DNA from: a virus
Taxonomy: Duplodnaviria; Heunggongvirae; Uroviricota; Caudoviricetes
Virus record (IMG/VR): IMGVR_UViG_648276653_000018
Length of the DNA: 33,532 nt
Strand: one strand, 5' to 3'
Part shown: positions 903 through 30,187 of the stretch, piece by piece
Position numbering within the stretch: the first letter of the stretch is position 1
How the letters are laid out: each line of letters opens with the position of its first letter
Made by a program: the position numbers and the translations under genes
Notes under the pieces: generated by a model
Database searches by the model: none
Told to the model about the DNA's origin: nothing
What the model saw: the letters and a program-made list of their open reading frames with translations, nothing else

Positions 903-1026
903 TTATTACGCCTTTGAGTAATTTTGGTTGACACTTCTCAAATGAAGAATTAGTGTGTGCGAAAGTGAACTGAACAGGATTGATCACCAGTTACCACACA
1001 TCTTGTTAAACGAGGAATCTTGCATC

Positions 1027-1248
1027 ATGACTCCACATATTTCAATCACCTTAGCTGTCCCATCTGTGTCTATTGAGAAATACAGTGAACTGACTGGGTT
1101 ATCTATCGATACTATCAATGACATGCTGGCTGATGGCCGCCTTATTCGCCATCGTCTCCGTAAAGATAAAAAGCGAGAAAAGGTAATGATCAATATCGCT
1201 GCAATGACCGTTGATGCGCTCTCTGAATGCAATTTGAGTATTAACTAG
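1027..1248 (+). CDS. Apl/Cox-like small HTH regulator/excisionase (first gene of early lytic operon)
   Basis: Position divergent from repressor; GAGGA RBS upstream of ATG 1027; HTH-like segment KYSELTGLSIDTINDMLADGRLI; start choice within ORF 955-1248 is inferred. Confidence 0.55.
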   Translation: MTPHISITLAVPSVSIEKYSELTGLSIDTINDMLADGRLIRHRLRKDKKREKVMINIAAMTVDALSECNLSIN

Positions 1249-1280
1249 TTCCATTTTGGGATACATCAGGGGTGTCGACT

Positions 1281-1790
1281 ATGTTTGATTATCAAGTTTC
1301 CAAACATCCACATTTTGATGAAGCCTGTCGTACATTCGCGCTGCGCCACAACCTGGTGCAACTGGCAGATCGTGCAGGCATGAATGTGCAGATTTTGCGT
1401 AACAAGCTGAACCCAGCTCAACCTCATTTATTAACCGCACCAGACATCTGGTTGCTTACCGATCTGACTGAAGATTCAACGCTGGTAGACGGTTTTCTGG
1501 CACAGATTCATTGTCTGCCATGTGTTCCGATTAATGAGGTGGCAAAAGAGAAATTGCCGCATTACGTCATGAGTGCAACTGCAGAGATCGGGCGTGTTGC
1601 TGCAGGTGCGGTATCTGGCGATGTAAAAACCAGTGCAGGTCGTCGTGATGCTATCAGCAGCATTAACTCTGTAACACGACTGATGGCGCTGGCTGCTGTT
1701 TCATTGCAGGCCCGTTTACAGGCTAACCCGGCGATGGCGAGTGCAGTTGATACCGTGACTGGCCTCGGTGCTTCATTCGGTTTGCTGTGA
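1281..1790 (+). CDS. cII: phage 186-type CII regulatory protein
   Basis: [48 protein letters not shown]...; size (~169 aa) and position after apl match 186 CII family. Confidence 0.75.
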
Positions 1791-1797
1791 GGTGCTT

Positions 1798-1998
1798 ATG
1801 CTGACGAAAGAACCATCATTTGCATCGCTGCTGGTAAAACAAAGTCCGGCAATGCACTACGGTCACGGCTGGATAATAGGTAAGGATGGTAAACGCTGGC
1901 ATCCGTGCCGTTCACAAGATGAATTGCTGGCAGAACTATCAACGAAAAAACGGGGGAACAAATGGCTATTGAAGGCGCTGCGGCGACTGTTCCATTAA
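1798..1998 (+). CDS. hypothetical early protein (possibly Fil-like)
   Basis: 66 aa ORF with GAGGTG RBS; position after cII as in 186; no motif recognised. Confidence 0.4.
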   Translation: MLTKEPSFASLLVKQSPAMHYGHGWIIGKDGKRWHPCRSQDELLAELSTKKRGNKWLLKALRRLFH

Positions 1999-2303
1999 GC
2001 CCCGGTGAACGCCTGAATGGACTTAATCACATTGCGGAGTTAAGGGCGAAAGTTTTTGGCCTGAATATTGAGTCAGAGCTTGAGCGGTTTATTAAAGATA
2101 TGCGTGATCCACGGGATATCAATAACGAACAAAATAAACGGGCACTGGCAGCCATATTCTTTATGGCAAAAATTCCGGCTGAACGTCATAGCATCAGCAT
2201 TAATGAGCTGACCACTGACGAAAAGCGGGAGTTGATTAAAGCAATGAATCATTTTCGTGCAGTGGTGAGCTTATTTCCCAGACGGCTAACCATGCCGAAT
2301 TAA
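1962..2303 (+). CDS. hypothetical early protein
   Basis: 113 aa ORF in early operon, same orientation; function not recognisable from sequence. Confidence 0.45.
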   Translation: MAIEGAAATVPLSPGERLNGLNHIAELRAKVFGLNIESELERFIKDMRDPRDINNEQNKRALAAIFFMAKIPAERHSISINELTTDEKRELIKAMNHFRAVVSLFPRRLTMPN

Positions 2304-2370
2304 CCAACTAATGAAATTCATGGCGTAAACCCGCCGGGCATCCCTTTATCTAAATTAAGGAGAGTTTATT

Positions 2371-2604
2371 ATGCGTAATATTGAAACCCTCAAGACTAAG
2401 ACCGGACCGGATGACGCAGGGCTTAATATTTTACTGACAGAGGCTCGTCTGGAAGAACGCCGGGCAAGGGCTGAAGCAATGGCAGCTCGCCTTGATAGTC
2501 TGGCGTGTCATATTACATCCCGCCAGCTAAACCACGTCGAAGCGGCAGAACTGCTGCGTGTGACTGCTGAAGCAATCCAGAACGAAGCGCAGGAGATCCA
2601 CTAA
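2371..2604 (+). CDS. hypothetical early protein
   Basis: 77 aa ORF with strong RBS (AAGGAGAG) 8 nt upstream of ATG. Confidence 0.55.
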   Translation: MRNIETLKTKTGPDDAGLNILLTEARLEERRARAEAMAARLDSLACHITSRQLNHVEAAELLRVTAEAIQNEAQEIH

Positions 2605-2831
2605 TGGCTGATGCAATGGATCTCGTACAGCAGCGCGTTGAAGAAGAACGCCAGCGCCATATCCGTGCTGCCCGTGCCAAAACGCCGGGCGTGTCACGCG
2701 TGCTTTGCATTGAATGTGAAGCGCCAATTCCGCCAGCAAGACGCCGCGTCATTCCGGGAGTGCAGCTTTGCATTACCTGCCAGGAAATCGCAGAGCTGAA
2801 AGGCAAACATTACAACGGAGGTGCTGTATGA
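2604..2831 (+). CDS. TraR/DksA-family C4 zinc-finger protein
   Basis: CIECEAPIP...CITCQ (CxxC-N17-CxxC); start overlaps previous stop (TAATG); typical of the P2-like early region. Confidence 0.75.
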   Translation: MADAMDLVQQRVEEERQRHIRAARAKTPGVSRVLCIECEAPIPPARRRVIPGVQLCITCQEIAELKGKHYNGGAV

Positions 2832-3685
2832 GCACCATCCTGAAATGGGCGGGTAATAAAACCGCCATTATGTCCGAACTGAAAAAACATCTTCCTGCTG
2901 GCCCGCGACTGGTTGAACCTTTCGCGGGTTCTTGTGCTGTGATGATGGCGACGGATTACCCCAGCTATCTGGTTGCGGATATTAATCCTGATTTAATCAA
3001 CCTCTATAAAAAGGTTTCTGCTGATTGTGAGGCGTTTATATCTCGCGCCAGAGTTTTATTTGAGAACGCAAACAGGGAGGTGGCTTATTACAACATAAAG
3101 CAGGAGTTTAATTACTCAACTGAAATTACTGATTTCATGAAAGCGGTATATTTCCTGTATCTCAATCGTCACGGTTACCGTGGGTTATGTCGCTATAACA
3201 AGAGCGGGCATTTCAACATTCCCTACGGTAATTATAAAAATCCGTATTTCCCTGAAAAAGAAATTCGCGCATTTGCAGAGAAAGCCCAGCGAGCAACGTT
3301 TATCTGCGCCAGCTTTGATGAAACGCTGGCGATGCTGCAGGTGGGGGATGTGGTGTATTGCGATCCGCCTTATGACGGTACGTTTTCCGGTTATCACACT
3401 GACGGCTTCACTGAAGATGACCAGTATCACCTGGCATCCGTTCTTGAACATCGGTCATCAGAAGGACATCCCGTCATTGTTTCTAACAGTGACACATCCC
3501 TGATCCGTTCGCTGTATCGCAATTTTACTCACCACTACATCAAGGCAAAACGCAGCATCGGTGTGGCAGCTGGTGATAGTAAATCTGCAACAGAAATCAT
3601 TGCTGTTTCCGGGGCGCGCTGCTGGGTGGGATTTGATCCTTCGCGTGGCGTAGATAGTTCTGCTGTGTACGAGGTGCGTGTATGA
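2828..3685 (+). CDS. dam: DNA adenine (N6) methyltransferase, Dam-like
   Basis: N-terminal [15 protein letters not shown]...PFAGSCAV (AdoMet-binding) and catalytic DPPY motif ([11 protein letters not shown]). Confidence 0.85.
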
Positions 3686-6094
3686 GTCATGACGATATGA
3701 GCAACTCTAGCGGCTTTAACGAGGCCGCTGCATCATTTTCATGGAACGGCCCGAAAAAGGCCATTAACCCTTATCTGGACCCGGCGGAATTTGCGCCGGA
3801 GTCTGCACTTTCAAACCTGATCACTCTGTATGCTGCCGATAACGAGCAGGAACAACTGCGCCGCGAGGCACTGAGTGAGCAGGTCTGGGAGCGTTATTTC
3901 TTTAATGAATCCCGTGATCCTGTCCAGCGCGAAATGGAGCAGGATAAGCTCATTAGCCGCGCAAAGCTTGCGCATGAGCAGCAGCTTTTTAACCCGGACA
4001 TGGTCATTCTGGCAGATGTCAGCGCCCAGCCTACCCACATCAGCAAGCCGCTGATGCAACGTATCGAATACTTCAGCAGCCTGGGCAGGCCAAAGGCTTA
4101 TTCCCGCTATTTGCGTGAGACGATTAAGCCATGTCTGGAGCGACTGGATTGTGTACGCGACAGTCAGCTATCCGCTTCTTTCCGTTTTATGGCAAGCCAT
4201 CAAGGGCTTGAGGGCCTGCTGATCCTGCCTGAAATGAGTCAGGATCAGGTAAAACGCCTGTCCACCCTGGTAGCTGCGCATATGAGCATGTGCCTTGATG
4301 CCGCTTGTGGCGATTTATATGCCACCGATGACGTTAAGCCAGAAGAAATCCGCAAGACATGGGAAAAGGTGGCAGCGGAAACCCTGCGACTGGATGTTAT
4401 CCCGCCTGCGTTTGAGCAACTCCGCCGGAAAAGAAACCGCCGCAAACCCGTGCCCTATGAACTCATACCGGGTTCGCTGGCACGTATGCTTTGCGCCGAC
4501 TGGTGGTATCGAAAATTGTGGAAGATGCGTTGCGAATGGCGGGAAGAGCAGTTGCGTGCTGTCTGCCTGGTCAGCAAAAAAGCATCTCCCTATGTCAGCT
4601 ATGAAGCCGTGACGCATAAACGTGAGCAGCGCCGTAAGTCGCTGGAGTTTTTCCGTTCTCATGAACTGGTGAACGAAGACGGCGACACGCTGGATATGGA
4701 AGATGTGGTAAACGCCAGCAGCAGCAACCCGGCACATCGCCGCAATGAGATGATGGCCTGTGTTAAAGGTCTGGAGCTTATCGCAGAAATGCGTGGTGAC
4801 TGCGCCGTTTTCTACACTATCACCTGTCCGTCACGTTTCCATTCCACGCTCAACAACGGCAGACCCAACCCGACCTGGACAAATGCGACGGTAAGACAAA
4901 GCAGCGATTATCTGGTCGGCATGTTTGCTGCATTTCGTAAGGCTATGCACAAAGCCGGGTTGCGCTGGTATGGCGTGCGGGTGGCTGAGCCGCACCATGA
5001 CGGTACTGTGCACTGGCATCTCATGTGTTTCATGCGCAAAAAAGACCGCCGCGCCATTACTGCATTGTTGCGTAAGTTTGCCATCCGTGAAGACCGCGAG
5101 GAACTGGGTAATAACACTGGTCCACGCTTTAAATCTGAGCTGATAAACCCACGCAAAGGAACACCGACAAGCTACATCGCGAAATACATCAGTAAGAACA
5201 TTGACGGGCGTGGTCTGGCTGGCGAGATCAGCAAGGAAACGGGTAAATCCCTGCGTGATAATGCTGAATACGTTAATGCTTGGGCGTCTCTGCATCGTGT
5301 TCAGCAATTCCGCTTCTTTGGCATTCCGGGGCGTCAGGCTTACCGTGAACTGCGATTGCTGGCTGGTCAGGCGGCAAGGCAACAGGGGACAAAAAGCAGG
5401 TGCGCCGGTACTGGATAACCCGCGCCTTGATGCCATCCTGGCTGCTGCTGATGCTGGTTGTTTTGCCACCTACATCATGAAGCAGGGCGGCGTACTGGTT
5501 CCCCGCAAATATCACCTTATCAGAACAGCTTATGAAATTAACGAAGAGCCGACTGCTTATGGCGATCACGGTATTCGTATTTATGGCATCTGGTCACCCA
5601 TTGTACAGGGCAAGATTTGCACTCATGCAGTGAAGTGGAAAATGGTTCGTAAGGCCGTTGACGTTCAGGAGGCGGCAGCCGACCAGGGCGCTTGCGCCCC
5701 TTGGACTCGTGGCAATAACTGTCCCCTTGCTGAAAATTTGAACCAACAAGGGAAAGACAAATCAGCTGATGGGGACTCCAGAACGGATATTACCCGTATG
5801 AATGACAAGGAGTTGCACGATTACCTGCACAGTATGAGCAAAAAAGAGCGCCGGGAACTGGCTGCAAGGTTACGCCAGGTGAAACCGAAACGGCGTAAAG
5901 ACTACAAACAGCGAATTACGGACCATCAGCGACAGCAGCTCGTCTATGAACTGAAGTCCAGGGGATTTGATGGCAGCGAGAAAGAAGTCGATTTGCTCCT
6001 TCGCGGCGGCAGTATTCCGTCAGGAGCAGGCCTGCGTATCTTCTATCGGAACCAGCGTCTGAAGGAAGATGATAAGTGGCGGAACCTGTATTAA
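3682..6094 (+). pseudogene. A: replication initiation protein A (rolling-circle nickase), split by a 1-nt frameshift in an A5 run at 5391-5395; fragments 3682-5418 and ~5387-6094
   Basis: Two overlapping same-strand ORFs (578 aa and 297 aa) whose junction lies at acAAAAAgcagg; combined length ~800 aa fits the P2/186 gene A size and position. Could equally be a sequencing error. Confidence 0.6.
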
Positions 6095-6163
6095 TTACGC
6101 GGGTTAACAATTCGTGCTCTTAATAATACCAGGCATATCAGGCCGATGAACGTAAAAAAACGT

Positions 6164-6204
6164 TTTACATCAGTAAGATTATTATATACTGTAAATATAA
6201 ACAG
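6164..6204 (+). promoter_or_regulatory. SOS promoter with LexA box CTGTAAATATAAACAG (6189-6204) overlapping a -10-like TATACT; -35-like TTTACA at 6164-6169
   Basis: Perfect CTGT-N8-ACAG palindrome with AT-rich spacer, flanked by ta/tg; upstream of the DinI/Tum-like gene. Confidence 0.7.
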
Positions 6205-6446
6205 TGGTTATGTATACAGTATTGTTTTGGTGTCATAGGAGGAAAGATGCAGGACTATTTTTTGGAGTCTTTGAAGCTCCAGCGCATTGATTTTTTTTCT
6301 TAAGCTTGTAGCGGCTAGTGAGTGTAGTGATGAAGAGAAGGGGCTGGCTCTGCAGTGGGTTTCTGAATTGACTGATGAACTCATGGCAAAAATCAGAAGC
6401 CACGAATACAACCGCTCAATGGATGTCATCAGCTGAGGTGACTTTT

Positions 6447-6680
6447 ATGCGCATTGAAATAATGATCGATAAAGAGCAGAAGATTAGCCAGTCTACCCTG
6501 GACGCACTTGAATCCGAGCTTTACCGCAATCTGCGCCCCCTGTATCCCAAAACGGTAATTCGCATTCGCAAAGGTAGCTCTAACGGTGTGGAACTAACCG
6601 GACTGCAACTGGATGAAGAAAGAAAACAAGTGATGAAAATTATGCAGAAGGTGTGGGAGGACGACAGCTGGCTGCATTAA
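6447..6680 (+). CDS. DinI-family protein (Tum/antirepressor-like, SOS-inducible)
   Basis: MRIEIMIDKEQ...ELYRNLRPLYP...QKVWEDDSWLH resembles E. coli DinI (MRIEVTIAK...ETWESADDWF); GAGGTG RBS; LexA box upstream. An in-frame start at 6375 is possible. Confidence 0.75.
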   Translation: MRIEIMIDKEQKISQSTLDALESELYRNLRPLYPKTVIRIRKGSSNGVELTGLQLDEERKQVMKIMQKVWEDDSWLH

Positions 6681-6872
6681 GAAATGTTGCCCCCAGGAGG
6701 ATTCATTCTGATGGGGGCTAGTTTGGGCAATGAGTGAAATAAGGCGTAAGGTGGGCGGTTATTTTGATAAGTGATCGTCCGCTTTGTGTCAGAAGCAGAA
6801 GTGGGAGTGTCTGAGACTCTCTAAAAGTTGATGATTCACTTACAAAACCATTTTCCTGATGGATGCTTACAC

Positions 6873-7208
6873 TTACGAATGATCATTCTGTTTAGTCTTC
6901 ATGAGAAAATCCCGAATCTTTGCCAAGTTTGAATTTTCGGGGATTGAATCCATGTACGGATCACGCTCAAACACTAATTGCTCAGATTCAACGAAAGCCT
7001 GCCACTCTAATGGGTCTAGCTCAAATCCCATTGCTGTCATATCACTTTCATCTTCCCCCTCGATCCAGTGGACTAAATAAAACAATTCATCATCAGGAGA
7101 ATCATCCTCACCATCAACAATATCAACATCGGTTACAGTGATACGTAGGGTGGGATCGATTTTTGAGACATAAATTCCTAACTGTGGTATAGGGGGAATA
7201 TTGTTCAT
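6873..7208 (-). CDS. hypothetical strongly acidic small protein (cargo gene in variable region)
   Basis: 111 aa ORF with AGGAG RBS 7 nt upstream of ATG; rich in D/E (e.g. DVDIVDGEDDSPDDELF, EGEDESD); no recognisable catalytic motif. Confidence 0.6.
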   Translation of the reverse strand: MNNIPPIPQLGIYVSKIDPTLRITVTDVDIVDGEDDSPDDELFYLVHWIEGEDESDMTAMGFELDPLEWQAFVESEQLVFERDPYMDSIPENSNLAKIRDFLMKTKQNDHS

Positions 7209-7520
7209 GGAAACTCCTTTTATTGGTGTTTGCTATTTGAATAAAAATACGCCAAACAGAGTGTTAACTGTGAATATGGAAAGAATCGTTGTAAGTACCC
7301 CGCTTAGGTGTCCCATTCTATTTTAGAGGTTCTCGTGCATATGGATTATGTTATCTGAAAGTTAACTTCCGCTTCCCGTTCACAGCGAACATTCATCTTT
7401 GTAAACCCGTATGATCCGTTTTTCAAGTGGCCATTCAGATACGGATTTTCACTTCCTTGACAGTGCATGACTATGCTGCATGAAATCGCATGATCGATTG
7501 AGGATCGTCTTTGCTCAGAT

Positions 7521-7546
7521 CCGCCAGAACTGGCGGGCTTTTGCTC
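7521..7546 (+). terminator. Rho-independent terminator-like hairpin (CCGCCA-GAAC-TGGCGG followed by GCTTTTG)
   Basis: Perfect 6-bp GC-rich stem, 4-nt loop, T-rich tail on the plus strand. Confidence 0.5.
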
Positions 7547-7587
7547 ATGTCATGCATGTGCATGAAAACCACTGCATAAAGCGGGCA

Positions 7588-7606
7588 GGCGTGGCGGGGA
7601 TACGAG
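7588..7606. other. candidate cos (cohesive-end) site: GGCGTGGCGGGGATACGAG
   Basis: First 13 nt identical to my recollection of the 186 cos 5' end (GGCGTGGCGGGGAAAGCAT; P2: GGCGAGGCGGGGAAAGCAC); lies between the A and Q genes where cos is expected. Confidence 0.35.
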
Positions 7607-7736
7607 CGCGCGCTAACTCTTGGCTTTGTTTCATAATCAAAAATGTGATCATTGAGATTATTCTTAAATTTGTGTTTGTCTATGAAATATCATTTCGCTT
7701 AACATTGTTTGAGTTAGGACTACATGAGAATAAAGA

Positions 7737-8312
7737 ATGCTTTTACCCGTAAGTATTACATCGTGTGGCTTGTATCACCCCTACTGGCATTTGGGAGAGC
7801 GCAACCCTCATAGCGATGAACTATCAAGGCAGATGATGGATTTTAAGGATGAAAATAATCGTAATCATCAAAGGGCCATTAACCGTTTTTCTCGATTAGC
7901 TATAGATAAGGTTGGGCGGTTAGTAATCAGAGGTGGCGGTGGGCGTTTTGTTGAGTCTCCTTTTTCGATAGCAGTTGTCCCGTCTCACACTGAAGGCAGA
8001 ATTTCACCGGCTTTGATTGAGGTCGCCGAGCGAATCGTAAATGTTCACCGTCGGGGCATTGTTGATTGCTGTTTGGAAAGAACACGCACTGTTCCTAGCG
8101 CACATCGTGAAGGTGGAGATCGCTCAATTACTGGTCACATGTCTAGTATCAGAGTTAGGGGTGGTAACCTCATGGGGCGAAATGTGTTACTACTAGATGA
8201 TGTTAAAACAACAGGCGGTAGTTTGTCTGCGTGTTTTTATTTACTGGAGTCTGCAGGAGCTGGAGTTATAATGCCATTAGCTCTGCTAGAAACTGCAAAC
8301 TATGAGGAGTAG
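7737..8312 (+). CDS. phosphoribosyltransferase (type I PRTase)-domain protein; candidate toxin/effector of a two-gene defence cassette
   Basis: PRPP-binding loop motif VLLLDDVKTTGGSL near C-terminal third; AT-rich codon usage unlike phage core; start ambiguous (ATG 7737 or ATG 7833). Confidence 0.7.
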   Translation: MLLPVSITSCGLYHPYWHLGERNPHSDELSRQMMDFKDENNRNHQRAINRFSRLAIDKVGRLVIRGGGGRFVESPFSIAVVPSHTEGRISPALIEVAERIVNVHRRGIVDCCLERTRTVPSAHREGGDRSITGHMSSIRVRGGNLMGRNVLLLDDVKTTGGSLSACFYLLESAGAGVIMPLALLETANYEE

Positions 8313-8316
8313 CAAA

Positions 8317-9276
8317 GTGCACTCAGAAGAATTAAAAAATACACTTGGATTAGCTATTCAAATCGGGAAGCTAGCATCTGATCAAAGTGTATTAAAATTC
8401 TTTGAGCTTATCGATTTTGATGTTATTCGTGATATACGCGACTTAACTGAGATGGTTAATAGCCACGGGTTTCTAAAAGATAAAATATCTGAGACTGATT
8501 TTCTAATAGCGAACGCTGAATTGGAGAACCACCATGTTAATGGTGTGGAGCTAATACCATATGGGTCTGAATTCTATCCTCTTAGTTTAGCTTTTACTCC
8601 TAATCCACCATCAATTCTCTACATAAAAGGGGATAAAAGTATACTCAAAGAATTGCCGGGTGTCGCAATTGTAGGATCCCGTGATACCTCCCCTGCAGGG
8701 GAAGAAATAACGAGGCGGATCACTAATCAGATAGTGTCTGCTGGGTATATTGTTGTAAGTGGGTTAGCAATAGGCACTGATGCGAATGCTCACAAGGCAA
8801 CGTTACAGGCAAAAGGAAAAACCATTGCTGTCTTGGCGCATGGTCTTGAGGAGGCTAAGCCGAAGCAAAACAGTCGACTTGCTCAAGAGATTCTGGATAA
8901 AGGTGGTGCATGGATTTCTGAGTATCCTATGGGTCGGCCGGCCCAGAAACAATCATTTGTACAAAGAAATCGGATACAAGTTGGATTATCTGCAGGTTCA
9001 ATTTTAATCGAGGCTGCGTTAAATAGCGGAACGATAACTCAAGCTGAGTTTGCAAATAAGGCGAAAAGACCAGTGTTTGCGGTTGTACCTCACCTACCTA
9101 ATAATCCGCTTAATCTTAATTGTGAGGGAACAGTTGATTTAGTTAAGAGCAACATGGCTAGAGCGCTAAAAACAAAACGGGATTATGATGATGTGATTAT
9201 GATCATAAATGAGTCCCGGGAGTATTTGTTAGAGCTAAAATGGCCAGGGAAACAGAGTACATTAGACTTGATTTAA
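8317..9276 (+). CDS. DprA/Smf-like (SLOG-superfamily Rossmann) protein; candidate partner/antitoxin of the PRTase gene
   Basis: Motifs VAIVGSRDTSPAG, SGLAIGTDANAHKATL, KTIAVLAHGLEE, ISEYP, FVQRNRIQVGLSAGSILIEAALNSGT match the DprA Rossmann-fold pattern; GTG 8317 preceded by GAGGAG RBS lying inside the 3' end of the PRTase gene (ATG 8302 is an alternative start). Confidence 0.7.
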   Translation: MHSEELKNTLGLAIQIGKLASDQSVLKFFELIDFDVIRDIRDLTEMVNSHGFLKDKISETDFLIANAELENHHVNGVELIPYGSEFYPLSLAFTPNPPSILYIKGDKSILKELPGVAIVGSRDTSPAGEEITRRITNQIVSAGYIVVSGLAIGTDANAHKATLQAKGKTIAVLAHGLEEAKPKQNSRLAQEILDKGGAWISEYPMGRPAQKQSFVQRNRIQVGLSAGSILIEAALNSGTITQAEFANKAKRPVFAVVPHLPNNPLNLNCEGTVDLVKSNMARALKTKRDYDDVIMIINESREYLLELKWPGKQSTLDLI

Positions 9277-9300
9277 AGCGCCTCTTTTAGAGGCACTTTG

Positions 9301-10329
9301 CTAAATTTGATATCTCTCGAATTTTATAATTTCTTCACCGCTCCAATGATTAAATTCTTTCATTCTTTTTTGTAATGGTAATAATTCATTTTTCACAAAT
9401 ACCTTACTAGCTTTTTCTACATCCCCAAATCCCCCAACATTATTAGGCATTATCCCCATCATTTGTGGCGGCACACGATGCGCTGCCATCATGTCATCCC
9501 GACTCACGTTCTTGATGTTAAGAAATTCATCCTTCGCCGCGACTTCTGACAACGGGATGATCTGAAGCCCGTCCTTTTTGCCGTTAGGCGAGTACATAAA
9601 CAGGTTGCGGAAGTTGCCAGGGCCTTTGGCGCTTTTCATCGCATTGCGGAGGTTGTTCACATCCTCCTGGTTCTGCGCGGCATCGGTCATGTACATGATG
9701 AAGCCTGCATGACTGCCGTTAATGTAATACTTCCGGCGGAACAGCGTGGCGGACTCGTTGAGCAGGGCTGACGGAATGGCAGAAAGATAACCTGGCAGGC
9801 CGTAGATCTCCTGGTTGATGTCCGGTTCCATCAGATGAAAAATGCTGCCTTTCGTGAACTGATACGGCTGGGTTGTCATACCGTATTGCACAAACCAGTA
9901 GGTATCCAGGTCTAACCCGCGTCGGGTGTATTTTGCCAGAGCAGGCTCAAGGGCGATAACTTCACCGAAGCGGTTCGTGCGTTTCTCCAGGTAGGCGTTA
10001 CCAAATACCAGATAGTCCTGCACAAAACGTGAAAAAGCCTGCTGGCTGAGCAGCGGGTGAGGGATGTAGGTACTGGTCAGAATATTGCATTTCACCGCAA
10101 TCGGTGAGCTGTGATGCACGGCGGCGCGAAAGGTGCGCGCCAGCCCGTCAAAACTCACTGGCGGCTCATACCATCGATCTGTCTGTACGCATTCCACATA
10201 GTCCAGCAGTTCACGGCGGTCCAGAACAGGAACGGGATCGCCGAAGCTGAATGCTTCGGCTGAACTCTGGCTTTTATGCTGGATCTGATTCATCGCCGCT
10301 ACGCGGTTTTTTTTACTCTTTCCCATCAA
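9301..10329 (-). CDS. Q: portal protein (P2 gpQ-like)
   Basis: 342 aa ORF, minus strand, directly upstream of the terminase ATPase gene as in P2; size matches gpQ. Confidence 0.85.
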   Translation of the reverse strand: MMGKSKKNRVAAMNQIQHKSQSSAEAFSFGDPVPVLDRRELLDYVECVQTDRWYEPPVSFDGLARTFRAAVHHSSPIAVKCNILTSTYIPHPLLSQQAFSRFVQDYLVFGNAYLEKRTNRFGEVIALEPALAKYTRRGLDLDTYWFVQYGMTTQPYQFTKGSIFHLMEPDINQEIYGLPGYLSAIPSALLNESATLFRRKYYINGSHAGFIMYMTDAAQNQEDVNNLRNAMKSAKGPGNFRNLFMYSPNGKKDGLQIIPLSEVAAKDEFLNIKNVSRDDMMAAHRVPPQMMGIMPNNVGGFGDVEKASKVFVKNELLPLQKRMKEFNHWSGEEIIKFERYQI

Positions 10330-12092
10330 AAAATCTCCACAATATTGCTGGTATTGGCGGATTCGCCCTGCAGCGGTTCGTTAAACAATGCGTGCATCGT
10401 TGCCCAGGCCAGATCGGCGTGGCTGGCTTCTTCGCTGCGGCTGGCTTCATAGGTCGGGCGGTTGCCGCTGGCGGTGGTGGCGCGACGGATTGCCATAAAG
10501 GACTGCGCTATGTCGGTGTGCCCGGCGTCAAACTCCAGGCGGCGGTGGCTAATAATGTCGTAGGCCTTGAGTACCAGGGCGTTTTTAACGTTGGGGTTGT
10601 AGACAAACTCCCGGACGGCAGGAAAAAACGCTTTCACGTTCTCGTAAACCCCGTGACCGACGCCGGTTGAGTCGATACCGATGTATGTTACGTTGTACTG
10701 TTCAGTCAGTTTTTTGATGGCGTCAGCCTGGGCGCGGAAGTCCATCCCGCGCCACTGGTGACGCTCAAGAATGCGGAACTTACCGCCCGGCACGGCTGGC
10801 GGTGCCACCACCACGCACCCGGCGCTGTCGCCGTTTTGCGTACCTTTTGCCGGGTCATAACCGATCCACACTTCGCGCCAGCCAAACGGGCGCAGGGCCA
10901 GTGCATGAAAGTCGCTCCAGACTTCCCAACTGTCCACCATGCACGCCTGCAGCTCGCTGAGCGGGAACACGGACGCGAGATCGTCCACAAACTCGCACAT
11001 CAGCAGGTTCTGGTATTCGTCCGGGCTGTACTCCATGCGCAACTGATCGAGGTCGAAAAGGTTACATCCGCCGCGCACTGCATCTTCCACGGTGACTATC
11101 TGGCGGTATTGCCCGTCTGCGCACAGCAGGCCGGGGGCCAGATTGCTGTGGGACAGGTCGATGTCCACCTTATCGGCTTTGTTACGCCCACGGTTGAACA
11201 GCGCACCAGACCAGAACGGATAAGCACTGTGTGTCAGGCTGGATGGCGTGGAAAAATAGGTTTGTCGCCATTTTTTGTGAATAGCCATACCGGAAGCCAC
11301 TTTGCGCAGCTCCTGGAATTTCGGTATCCAGAAATATTCATCCAGATACAGGTTGCCGTGGTAACTCTGGGCCGTGCGGGCATTGGTGCCGAGGAAGTAA
11401 AGCGTGGCCCCGTTGGGAAGCACCATCGGATCGCCTTTCAGCTCCACCTCCACTTCTTTGGCGAAGTCGATGATGTACTGTTTAAAGACGTGGGCCTGTG
11501 CCTTACTGGCGGAAAGGAAAATCTGGTTACGTCCGGTAAGCAGGGCGTCAATCAGGGCTTCACGGGCAAAGTAAAAGGTCGCGCCGATCTGGCGTGACTT
11601 CAGCAGGTTGCGGATGCGGTTGGTTTTTCCGGCTTCCCACCAGTGGCGCTGGTAGTTGAACATGGAGGAATGGAAGATTTCTTCCAGCTTCTCAATCTGC
11701 TCATCGGTGAAAACATTCTTTTCCGGCTGACGGCGCGGGCCTTTGTTGCGGTTGGCGACGTTAGGGTTTAAGTCGGCTTCGTTGCCGCCATTGTTAAACT
11801 TGCCGATCCGCGCGTGGCGTTCCGACTGGCGCGCCAGCAGGTCAATCTCTTTGAAATCTTTCCCTTCTTTGTGCTCCTTCATAATGAGCTGGCAGTAGCG
11901 TGCGGCGGTGGTGAGCTGCATCTGATCCAGCGGCCCATAGTCACCCCACTTGTCGCGTTTCTTCCAGCTGTGAACGGTTGCAACTTTCTCGCCCAGCATT
12001 TCAGCAATGCGGGCTACACGGTATCCCTGAAAGTACAGCAGCATGGCCTGCCGACGGGGATCGAGATCTGCGGGTGTCAGTGTGGTGTTCAT
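10326..12092 (-). CDS. P: terminase large (ATPase) subunit (P2 gpP-like)
   Basis: 588 aa ORF overlapping Q by 4 nt; size and position match P2 gpP. Confidence 0.85.
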   Translation of the reverse strand: MNTTLTPADLDPRRQAMLLYFQGYRVARIAEMLGEKVATVHSWKKRDKWGDYGPLDQMQLTTAARYCQLIMKEHKEGKDFKEIDLLARQSERHARIGKFNNGGNEADLNPNVANRNKGPRRQPEKNVFTDEQIEKLEEIFHSSMFNYQRHWWEAGKTNRIRNLLKSRQIGATFYFAREALIDALLTGRNQIFLSASKAQAHVFKQYIIDFAKEVEVELKGDPMVLPNGATLYFLGTNARTAQSYHGNLYLDEYFWIPKFQELRKVASGMAIHKKWRQTYFSTPSSLTHSAYPFWSGALFNRGRNKADKVDIDLSHSNLAPGLLCADGQYRQIVTVEDAVRGGCNLFDLDQLRMEYSPDEYQNLLMCEFVDDLASVFPLSELQACMVDSWEVWSDFHALALRPFGWREVWIGYDPAKGTQNGDSAGCVVVAPPAVPGGKFRILERHQWRGMDFRAQADAIKKLTEQYNVTYIGIDSTGVGHGVYENVKAFFPAVREFVYNPNVKNALVLKAYDIISHRRLEFDAGHTDIAQSFMAIRRATTASGNRPTYEASRSEEASHADLAWATMHALFNEPLQGESANTSNIVEIF

Positions 12093-29952: not shown

Positions 29953-30039
29953 CGCTGCCGCCATTTTGTCGCCATCGTTAAAAAACAGTGCTTCTAACAT
30001 CATGATTTTAAACAGCTTAAATTTCAGGCAACAAAAAAC

Positions 30040-30075
30040 CCATCAACCTTGAACCGAAATGGCGGGGTTGATGGG
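30040..30075 (+). terminator. hairpin CCCATCAACC-N16-GGTTGATGGG downstream of ogr, at or near the prophage/chromosome junction
   Basis: 10-bp perfect inverted repeat preceded by an A-run; no clear T tail on plus strand, so may act for the minus strand or be part of the att region. Confidence 0.35.
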
Positions 30076-30187
30076 CTCCACAAAATGGGGACATCAAAGA
30101 AAAGCAGTGGCACTAATTAAGACTGATGCCCTGCGGAAAAGTTCTGCGGTTGTGCAAAAAAATTTCATTTTCAGGGCAACTTCAGTT

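Follow-up and report, generated by a model that had tools for sequence, protein, structure and literature searches.

The closest described relatives of the gene pair considered here are the ShosTA toxin-antitoxin systems; the name shosTA was reportedly given by Kimelman in 2012 and the original system is said to come from Shewanella, although a literature search combining shosT with Shewanella returned nothing relevant. ShosTA was described as a toxin-antitoxin pair in Kimelman 2012, as cited in PMC11961720, phage defence by the family was shown in 2022, and structures and a mechanism followed in 2025-26. The characterised E. coli systems of APEC O1 and KTE181 (Rousset 2022 pFR105; Millman 2022; 8ZVA-8ZVD, 9VZO) consist of two genes, a phosphoribosyltransferase (PRTase) toxin and a DprA-like antitoxin, and the long DprA and PRTase system placed by Rousset et al. 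2022 (PMC9122126) in the same P2 hotspot as the present pair protects against T7 and lambda. Residues D331/D332 of the PRPP-binding motif of ShosT are essential for toxicity (PMC11961720, PMC12961424). PsyrTA (RqlHI) follows the same logic of a PRTase toxin with a DprA-like antitoxin, its toxin being fused to a RecQ-like helicase. A similar pairing occurs in natural competence, where ComFC (H. pylori ComFC 7P0H; PMC9005727) is a PRPP-binding PRTase fold, about 190 aa long and bearing an N-terminal beta extension, and its partner is a DprA-family mediator of ssDNA and RecA, as in the present pair; the competence genes are dispersed, whereas the pair is co-encoded on mobile elements. Iyer et al. 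2017 (PMC5512222) had already pointed out the kinship of ComFC-like PRTases with those coupled to DprA.

The gene pair analysed here lies in a viral DNA stretch of 33,532 nucleotides (the window; IMG/VR record IMGVR_UViG_648276653_000018), between a P2-type cos site and portal gene Q (Table 1). By analogy with the characterised systems it is very probably a type IV toxin-antitoxin/abortive-infection module of the ShosTA family, of a short-toxin subtype, carried as accessory cargo 3' of cos in a P2-like E. coli prophage, and it would be expected both to be toxic and to act against phages. Within this known family the pair is unremarkable, its sole oddity being a minimal toxin without the pyrophosphatase domain. 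The two coupled plus-strand genes described in the first-pass annotation were both confirmed as open reading frames. The cassette starts 124 nt 3' of cos, the core of which forms the boundary of the hotspot; a cos core in the same orientation stands 5' of the homologous cassettes of a Pectobacterium P2-like prophage and a Hafnia P4-like satellite, and 45 P2-like phage records carry the segment 7462-7618 at about 90% identity. With the APEC O1 and KTE181 systems the pair shares both the cos-proximal gpA-gpQ hotspot of P2 and the DD PRPP motif, but the position relative to cos differs (portal side here, gpA side there), as does the gene order (toxin-antitoxin here, antitoxin-toxin there). In P2 itself, old and tin lie on the gpA side of cos; the earlier proposal that the cassette fills their slot thus holds for the gpA-gpQ hotspot but not for the side of cos. 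The cassette was also described as AT-rich, and GC content is indeed 0.38-0.44 over 7500-9500 vs 0.52-0.62 in the structural genes, but this low GC spans the entire 6000-9500 hotspot and is not peculiar to the two genes. Silencing by H-NS is described for AT-rich immune loci, one ShosTA among them (bioRxiv 10.64898/2026.09.05.749240). The gpA gene of the window carries a 2-nt frameshift, and an Rfam search of the cassette and its surroundings detected no RNA gene.

Table 1. Coordinates of the cassette and its flanking signals in the window
Feature	Position	Strand	Details	Basis
shosT (gene 1)	7737-8312	+	ATG start, 191 aa	ORF list
shosA (gene 2)	8317-9276 or 8302-9276	+	from GTG, 319 aa; or from ATG, 324 aa	
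P2/P4-type cos core	7578-7613	+	AAAGCGGGCAGGCGTGGCGGGGATACGAGCGCGCGC	direct sequence reading
AT-rich leader 5' of shosT	7614-7736	+	presumed native promoter	sequence
Shine-Dalgarno of shosA	8304-8309	+	GAGGAG	sequence
Hairpin between shosA and portal gene Q	9274-9300	.		RNA fold

The product of gene 1 (shosT), which contains VLLLDDVKTTGGSL, carries the expected PRPP-binding loop, LLLDDVKTTGGS, at residues 151-162, and its AlphaFold (AF2) model is a single-domain type I PRTase fold (pLDDT 90.6), both in agreement with the first reading of the locus. Within the loop none of 31 homologues departs from D155, T158, G160 or S162, at least 90% of them keep D154, and D154/D155 align with D331/D332 of characterised ShosT. 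Direct similarity to that protein is confined to a 44-48-residue segment around the loop (BLASTP E 5e-5; hhalign probability 88%). The PADLOC ShosT model PDLC03962 (PADLOC-DB v2) matches gene 1 with E 3.7e-14 over the PRTase part only, PDLC03012, the narrow ShosT model of the E. coli type, gives no match, and PHROG 7188 matches gene 1 over its full length (E 4.5e-83); the Pfam PRTase signature is weak, at 18.6 bits under a cut-off of 26.3. The best PDB folds found by Foldseek are the ShosT structures 8zvc and 8zvd (E 1.3e-5 and 1.9e-5) at a moderate TMq of 0.51-0.54, followed in third place by ComF/ComFC 7p0h; ShosT 8zvb was matched as well, and ShosT and ComFC folds rank ahead of metabolic PRTases. 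A phmmer search of PDB sequences with gene 1 did not retrieve ShosT, which was found by fold comparison alone.

Characterised ShosT is a protein of 424 aa with an N-terminal HAD-like pyrophosphatase (residues 1-164), whereas the 191-aa product here is PRTase-only: neither Pfam nor the AF2 model reveals a HAD/pyrophosphatase domain in it, and no HAD gene lies 5' of shosT, where only cos is found. The HAD domain is a feature of the studied ShosTA subtype and not of the family model, most representatives of which are 175-200 aa long, and stand-alone proteins of this length are the dominant architecture among the best-scoring 150 of 1066 representative clusters. Homologues of similar length (about 190 aa) keep the N-terminus even at 38% identity; its first 30 residues in gene 1 hold one Cys, and ComFC's 4-Cys zinc finger is missing.

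Gene 2 (shosA) was read as a DprA/SLOG protein, which is borne out by matches to Pfam PF02481 (DNA_processg_A; E 1.4e-60) and to SLOG LDcluster4 (8e-5); it also matches the PADLOC ShosA model PDLC03961 with E 2.8e-70 and PHROG 4299 over its full length. Its AF2 model (pLDDT 93.2) comprises N-terminal SAM-like helices (3-74), a DprA Rossmann/SLOG core, a helix at 287-305 and a disordered 7-residue tail (313-319, pLDDT <50), the same layout of SAM, Rossmann, C-terminal helix and disordered tail as characterised ShosA. In fold it is as near to a housekeeping DprA (3maj, TM 0.75) as to ShosA (8zva, TM 0.73 over 313 columns), and its identity to characterised ShosA is 28-36%, with 36% over 198 aa against that of APEC O1. 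Counterparts of the ssDNA-binding residues R139 and R234 and of the RecA-contact residue K200 are retained. Of the remaining functional positions, ssDNA-binding R261 is replaced by Glu (Asp/Glu in most aligned homologues, Lys in one), RecA-contact R206 by Ala, and the dimer residues L181/F182 by Gln/Ala.

The arrangement of the two genes places the Shine-Dalgarno of shosA inside the end of shosT, which predicts translational coupling: GAGGAG forms the last two shosT codons (Glu-Glu), the stop codon TAG occupies 8310-8312, and the GTG at 8317-8319 lies 7 nt past the Shine-Dalgarno. Of the ribosome-binding site and GTG start that had both been placed within the 3' end of gene 1, only the former is inside, the GTG following the stop at a spacing of about 4-5 nt. 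An in-frame ATG at 8302, the RefSeq start, overlaps shosT by 11 nt. The GTG is favoured because homologues mostly start directly past the upstream stop and are 317-320 aa long, and because the junction TATGAGGAG-stop-4/5 nt-GTG/TTG is kept in the Pectobacterium and Hafnia homologues. The ribosome-binding site of shosT is weak (aaaga). The native shosT promoter presumably lies in the AT-rich leader, although a sigma-70 scan of the plus strand upstream of shosT gave no consensus match at the scan threshold. At the other end, where shosA and portal gene Q converge, the hairpin has a folding energy of -12.9 kcal/mol (z = -3.3 vs shuffles) and is likely a bidirectional terminator; it is without a T-run, and a terminator scan left it unflagged.

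These matches support the family that the first-pass annotation had tentatively named for the pair, with PADLOC models for both proteins and both ShosT and ShosA among the nearest folds, and the same broad models also match the characterised APEC O1 proteins. The housekeeping assignments weighed there do not fit. Gene 1 scores far under the cut-offs of the apt, pyrE, prs and hpt models of type I PRTases (best 25.8 bits vs an NCBIfam cut-off of 143, over the PRPP loop only), and it scores 25.5 bits against the competence ComFC model TIGR00201, with a cut-off of 233.55. Gene 2 reaches 186.4 vs 191.15 on the competence DprA model TIGR00732 and 168.6 vs 495 on E. coli Smf/DprA PRK10736, and it sits in a prophage hotspot. 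Assignment to PsyrTA/RqlHI was likewise rejected: the match of gene 1 to PsyrT (E 4.9e-6) is confined to the C-terminus of the model (positions 577-686 of 689), gene 1 has no helicase domain, and gene 2 matches PsyrA (E 1e-30), but the ShosT and ShosA models score much better. The novelty first attached to the cassette was overstated, as the family and its mechanism have been studied before and the exact pair (WP_001324531 and WP_001324530) is already catalogued in Rousset et al. 2022, Table S5A. The literature searched yielded no experiment on the short-toxin subtype.

Exact-protein context look-ups, from which the distribution is drawn, recovered the same two-gene arrangement, with a PRTase (about 190 aa) preceding a DprA-like protein (about 320 aa), in every context examined, nine besides the present one. 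The pair occupies the same slot in P2-like phages of Enterobacterales (Pectobacterium, Citrobacter-type and Salmonella SopEPhi), and is found elsewhere in a Hafnia P4-like satellite, in Shewanella and Aeromonas Mu-like prophages, in a Vibrio element and in an Alteromonas island adjoining AAA_15/21 genes. In Alteromonas a HAD protein is encoded by a separate upstream gene, whose match to the HAD domain of long ShosT is weak (46 residues, E 9e-4) and does not establish a common origin. The SopEPhi genes orf14/orf15 (AY319521) form the same short cassette before portal gpQ, with 50% identity in gene 1, and like PHROGs 7188/4299 are annotated only as 'unknown'. No phage record matches the cassette by DNA, and a contig profile search built on the gene 1 alignment yielded nothing beyond unrelated PRTases of archaea and bacteria that share the generic PRPP-loop pattern. 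The adjacent cos segment has matches in about 1266 E. coli genomes, the cassette in only 22, which, together with its prophage-hotspot context, accords with its first description as accessory. Overall, carriers number 22-33 of 5426 E. coli genomes; among complete genomes the short form occurs in 33 and the long form in 30, and the pair is also present in a prophage of EPEC E2348/69. In RefSeq, gene 2 is named "DprA" and the toxin gene is unannotated in every listed E. coli genome with the allele. Both genes are under strong purifying selection and are not chance ORFs, with pN 0.07-0.15 vs pS about 0.7 for each and a dN/dS of about 0.03-0.08 for shosT.

The mechanism proposed for this pair is modelled step by step on the characterised E. 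coli APEC O1 and KTE181 system. ShosT would bind PRPP through its DD/TTGGS loop, and its phosphoribosyltransferase activity would disturb nucleotide (purine) metabolism and so cause replication stress or DNA damage. ShosA would not bind the toxin; rather, it would bind ssDNA and offset the damage with RecA-dependent recombination, and the weak shosT ribosome-binding site and strong shosA GAGGAG may keep the antitoxin in excess. Phage infection would strip this protection through host shut-off and decay of a labile ShosA, or alternatively phage ssDNA or replication intermediates could draw ShosA away from RecA, and the infected cell would be poisoned before the phage cycle is completed. Such an abortive-infection logic, suggested on first reading, agrees by analogy with the published ShosTA models (PMC11961720, PMC12961424) and with the hypothesis of Rousset et al. 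(PMC9122126). In long ShosT toxicity is lost in the PRTase DD mutant and hardly affected in the pyrophosphatase mutant, and for this reason a PRTase-only toxin may be expected to suffice. The published studies assign no acceptor substrate to any ShosT (PMC11961720, PMC12961424), and the toxic chemistry itself is conjectural. One unlikely reading is that ShosTA, PsyrTA and ComFC-DprA share an ancestral ssDNA-handling pair and that the toxin target is a nucleic acid, through PRPP-dependent modification or sequestration of ssDNA or a DNA-linked base and not of a free purine, with the DprA-like partner acting as a direct competitor for ssDNA instead of a downstream repair factor. It would explain why no purine bound ShosT in vitro, why the acceptor has escaped identification, and why the antitoxin never touches the toxin in the published work.

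Two alternative functions bear on the preferred reading of the pair as a ShosTA-type defence module. Defence against T7 and lambda is on record for the related long system (PMC9122126, PMC11961720), and the short cassette lies in hotspots dominated by defence genes and adjoins AAA_15/21 genes in Alteromonas; we therefore consider it quite improbable that the pair serves only as an addiction module, maintaining the prophage or satellite through the death of cells from which it has been lost, with no significant anti-phage role. The toxin-antitoxin architecture with tight coupling and an apparently stronger antitoxin ribosome-binding site, the constant association with mobile elements, and the first description of ShosTA simply as toxin-antitoxin (Kimelman 2012, as cited in PMC11961720) would suit such a role, but addiction and defence are not mutually exclusive.

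A phage-serving module for ssDNA handling or recombination, derived from ComFC-DprA and perhaps protecting or recombining phage DNA ends near cos, would be neither toxin-antitoxin nor defence. Gene 1 has the size of ComFC (191 aa) and is ComF-like both by TIGR00201 (E 1e-5 over residues 28-183) and by its Foldseek match to H. pylori ComF 7p0h, ComFC has both ssDNA and PRPP as ligands and, in other species, DprA as an interaction partner (PMC9005727), gene 2 is only slightly below the DprA equivalog cut-off (186.4 vs 191.15), and the cassette adjoins cos. Even so, every score is under the ComF and DprA family cut-offs, the 4-Cys zinc finger is missing, the PADLOC ShosT and ShosA models are the best models, and the cassette is sporadic, AT-rich and absent from most P2-like phages; in addition, shosA and psyrA deletion mutants were both untransformable (Millman et al.), consistent with toxicity, and such a role is highly improbable. 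That the pair is instead the decayed remnant of an inactive ShosT that lost its N-terminal domain in a defective prophage, as a toxin of less than half the studied length, the missing RefSeq annotation of gene 1 in the present allele and the gpA frameshift might suggest, is barely credible and largely refuted by conservation, given that the 191-aa length and N-terminus are kept across genera, the stand-alone form dominates the best-scoring clusters, selection is strongly purifying and the same pair occurs in phage record SopEPhi.

The short form leaves the overall picture of ShosTA unchanged, and the main practical value of assigning the pair to this family lies in annotation, as a defence/toxin-antitoxin system has been hidden in genomes that include the reference EPEC strain E2348/69. 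In E. coli the short and long forms are of about equal frequency, and stand-alone proteins of similar size dominate the family, while the mechanistic work has all been done on the HAD-fused, highly divergent long ShosT. If the 191-aa toxin works without a pyrophosphatase, it would offer a simpler system in which to search for the acceptor substrate and would test whether the pyrophosphatase is dispensable. Should the toxin target prove to be a nucleic acid, the 191-aa form would offer the cleanest starting point for finding that substrate.

The cassette between the packaging site cos and the portal gene Q, which pairs the gene of a putative phosphoribosyltransferase (PRTase) toxin (gene 1, shosT) with that of a putative DprA-like antitoxin (gene 2, shosA), is a member of the known, named and mechanistically studied ShosTA defence family, and it resides in a known hotspot. 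Gene 1 matches the PADLOC-DB ShosT model PDLC03962 in its PRTase portion (E 3.7e-14) and, less strongly, the PRTase at the C-terminus of PsyrT, and gene 2 matches the ShosA model PDLC03961 (E 2.8e-70), supporting the ShosTA membership that the first-pass annotation had guessed. In Pfam, gene 2 matches DNA_processg_A (E 1.4e-60) and SLOG LDcluster4, and gene 1 matches Pribosyltran below threshold; PHROGs 7188 and 4299, each of unknown function, match full-length. That annotation had also raised a housekeeping PRTase paired with a true DprA as the contrary outcome, and profile searches leave both proteins under the NCBIfam cut-offs. For gene 1 all salvage PRTase models fall far short and ComF reaches 25.5 bits against a cut-off of 233; for gene 2 the DprA equivalog TIGR00732 gives 186.4 against 191.15 and E. 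coli Smf (PRK10736) 168.6 against 495. The PRPP-binding motif of gene 1 is intact and the folds of both proteins agree with the assignment. The AlphaFold model of gene 1 (pLDDT 90.6) has as its nearest PDB structures ShosT (8zvc/8zvd/8zvb) and H. pylori ComF (7p0h), followed by PyrR, OPRT and HGPRT. The gene 2 model (pLDDT 93.2) is closest to R. palustris DprA (TM 0.75) and APEC O1 ShosA 8zva (TM 0.73 over 313 columns), and its helical N-domain, Rossmann core, long C-terminal helix and disordered 7-residue tail follow the ShosA layout described in PMC12961424.

Features of the cassette and its surroundings in the window
Feature	Position	Strand	Remarks
Replication gene A	3682-6094		overlapping ORFs 3682-5418 and 5201-6094
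Genes from gpA to cos	6208-7208		DinI-like gene and two small hypothetical ORFs
One of these small ORFs	6873-7208	-	WP_001059831 in E2348/69
cos core AAAGCGGGCAGGCGTGGCGGGGATACGAGCGCGCGC	7578-7613		124 nt 5' of gene 1
Gene 1 (shosT)	7737-8312	+	ATG start, 191 aa
GAGGAG	8304-8309		7 nt 5' of GTG 8317
Gene 2 (shosA)	8317-9276 from GTG; 8302-9276 from ATG (RefSeq)	+	
Hairpin	9274-9300		between gene 2 and convergent portal gene; -12.9 kcal/mol, z -3.3
RybB sRNA	30030-30108	-	Rfam RF00110, 105 bits, full length

The two plus-strand reading frames lie exactly where they had been placed from the sequence, and they are coupled, the 3' end of gene 1 reading TAT GAG GAG TAG; the GTG of gene 2, previously put inside gene 1, is actually 5 nt past its stop. 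The in-frame ATG used by RefSeq gives a protein of 324 aa. We favour the GTG because gene 2 homologues are mostly 317-320 aa, beginning just past the stop of the upstream gene, and because the TATGAGGAG-stop-GTG/TTG junction is kept in Pectobacterium and Hafnia. Gene 1 homologues are 189-193 aa, and even those at 38% identity share the conserved N-terminus (SCGxYHPY, MMDFK); the ATG at 7737 is therefore the start. The weak ribosome-binding site of shosT, set against the consensus GAGGAG of shosA, would fit an antitoxin-in-excess design. The AT-rich character ascribed to the cassette is borne out by a GC content of 0.38-0.44 over 7500-9500 versus 0.52-0.62 where the morphogenesis genes lie.

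The window is a P2-like prophage whose positions 1006-10397 are 96.9% identical to a prophage of EPEC E2348/69 (cassette alone, 99.9%), for which RefSeq gives the order gpA, small ORF, DinI-like, small ORF, DprA, portal, terminase. The position of the cos core confirms the proposed placement between cos and Q; a Pectobacterium P2-like prophage and a Hafnia P4-like satellite also have this core, in the same orientation, 5' of their homologous cassettes. On the P2 map old and tin are on the gpA side of cos, and the characterised ShosTA of APEC O1 is also on that side. That side and the cos-Q side occupied here both fall within the gpA-gpQ hotspot of Rousset et al. (PMC9122126). The DinI-like gene and small ORFs between gpA and cos recur beside many different cargo systems in the Rousset hotspot table and look like semi-conserved hotspot furniture outside the cassette. 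Gene A is split, compared with the intact 2415-nt E2348/69 gene, by a 2-nt deletion adjoining position 5386; either the prophage is defective and carries a frameshift here, or the deletion is a sequencing error. RybB belongs to the host chromosome, and the right end of the prophage thus lies just before it. RefSeq/PGAP leaves the 191-aa shosT unannotated and names 'DprA' alone in all listed complete E. coli genomes with this allele (in the E2348/69 prophage shosT is 9338-9913, the counterpart of 7737-8312 here); a 75%-identical allele is annotated as 'phosphoribosyltransferase' in most genomes.

The studied ShosT (424 aa, from E. coli APEC O1 / KTE181) joins an N-terminal HAD-like pyrophosphatase to the PRTase, whereas the toxin encoded here is PRTase-only. 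The two align by BLASTP over 44 residues round the PRPP loop (36% identity, E 5e-5) and over 48 columns in profile comparison, and phmmer of gene 1 against PDB sequences did not retrieve ShosT; the narrow PADLOC model PDLC03012 matches the long type only, whereas broad models match both. ShosA is 36% identical to that of APEC O1 over 198 residues. The residues corresponding to R139, R234 and K200 are retained, but Glu takes the place of R261, Ala that of R206 and Gln/Ala that of L181/F182. The order is toxin-antitoxin in the window and antitoxin-toxin in APEC O1.

Homologues, conserved pairing, selection and family size together indicate that the short form is real and probably functional. In every context found, a ~190-aa PRTase stands immediately 5' of a ~320-aa DprA-like protein: in the same slot of Citrobacter-type and Pectobacterium P2-like prophages, in front of the portal gene of Salmonella phage SopEPhi (AY319521, orf14/orf15, 3989-5537, labelled 'unknown' in the record), in the Hafnia P4-like satellite, in Mu-like prophages of Shewanella algae and Aeromonas, in a Vibrio element, and in an Alteromonas macleodii island adjoining AAA_15/AAA_21 genes. 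A short-family HMM matches the upstream partners extracted from six loci, all at E 1e-42 to 1e-85, versus just 19.6 bits for long ShosT. The pair is under purifying selection, non-synonymous divergence being 0.07-0.15 against ~0.7, near saturation, at synonymous sites. When 1.84 billion representatives were searched with a profile, 1066 clusters matched at E 1e-10 or better; most of the best 150 are 175-200 aa long and stand alone, and N-terminal fusions are occasional. PADLOC ShosT was the best assignment for all ten clusters sampled. Minimal ShosT is therefore the commonest architecture among these best 150 of 1066, and the HAD-fused E. coli ShosT the derived form. In Alteromonas macleodii (3823-7837) a free-standing HAD hydrolase (172 aa) lies directly 5' of shosT (188 aa) and shosA (319 aa), followed by a gene for an AAA_15/AAA_21 ATPase and one for a partner. 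The arrangement resembles the studied HAD-PRTase fusion in 'split' form and points to modular gain and loss, though the similarity to the ShosT HAD is weak. Among 5426 complete E. coli genomes, 33 carry the short cassette (23 this allele, ~10 the 75%-identical one) and 30 the long; ~15 further complete genomes have a shosA-like 'DprA' gene of a third, more distant kind (~69.7% identity, query 839-1395).

ShosTA was first named in 2012 as a toxin-antitoxin pair (PMC11961720), was shown to act as anti-phage defence in 2022 by Rousset et al. (PMC9122126) and Millman et al., and was dissected structurally in 2025 and 2026 (PMC11961720, PMC12961424). The "DprA + PRTase" system tested by Rousset (pFR105) came from the APEC O1 P2 hotspot (PMC9122126). 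ShosT binds PRPP, needs its DD motif for toxicity, and disturbs purine metabolism, so that cells duplicate their DNA, form filaments and die; the DprA-like ShosA forms a dimer and binds ssDNA and RecA, not the toxin; and the proposed triggers are host shut-off driven by T7 Gp0.7, with labile ShosA, or phage ssDNA or replication proteins (PMC11961720, PMC12961424). Transfer of this model to a PRTase-only toxin is reasonable because in long ShosT a DD mutant abolishes toxicity and a pyrophosphatase mutant barely matters (PMC11961720, PMC12961424). In the mechanism favoured here by analogy, PRPP-dependent ShosT activity would harm nucleotide and DNA homeostasis, ShosA would counteract the damage via ssDNA and RecA, and phage infection would strip this protection, resulting in abortive infection.

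That the cassette is a pure addiction module is improbable. Slightly less probable still is a phage-serving ssDNA module resembling ComFC-DprA, which would account for the ComF-like sequence and fold of gene 1, ComFC being able to bind ssDNA and PRPP and to interact with DprA (PMC9005727); the PRTase-DprA-ComFC kinship was pointed out by Iyer et al. 2017 (PMC5512222) and is not mentioned in the two ShosTA structure papers (PMC11961720, PMC12961424). A decayed remnant is very improbable, being largely excluded by conservation. As a ShosTA system, the pair belongs to a minimal subtype that is widespread, and Table S5A of Rousset et al. lists WP_001324531 (E2348/69 DprA) 13 times and WP_001324530 (Pribosyltran), which partners it, three times, so this exact pair has already been catalogued in a published supplementary table (PMC9122126).
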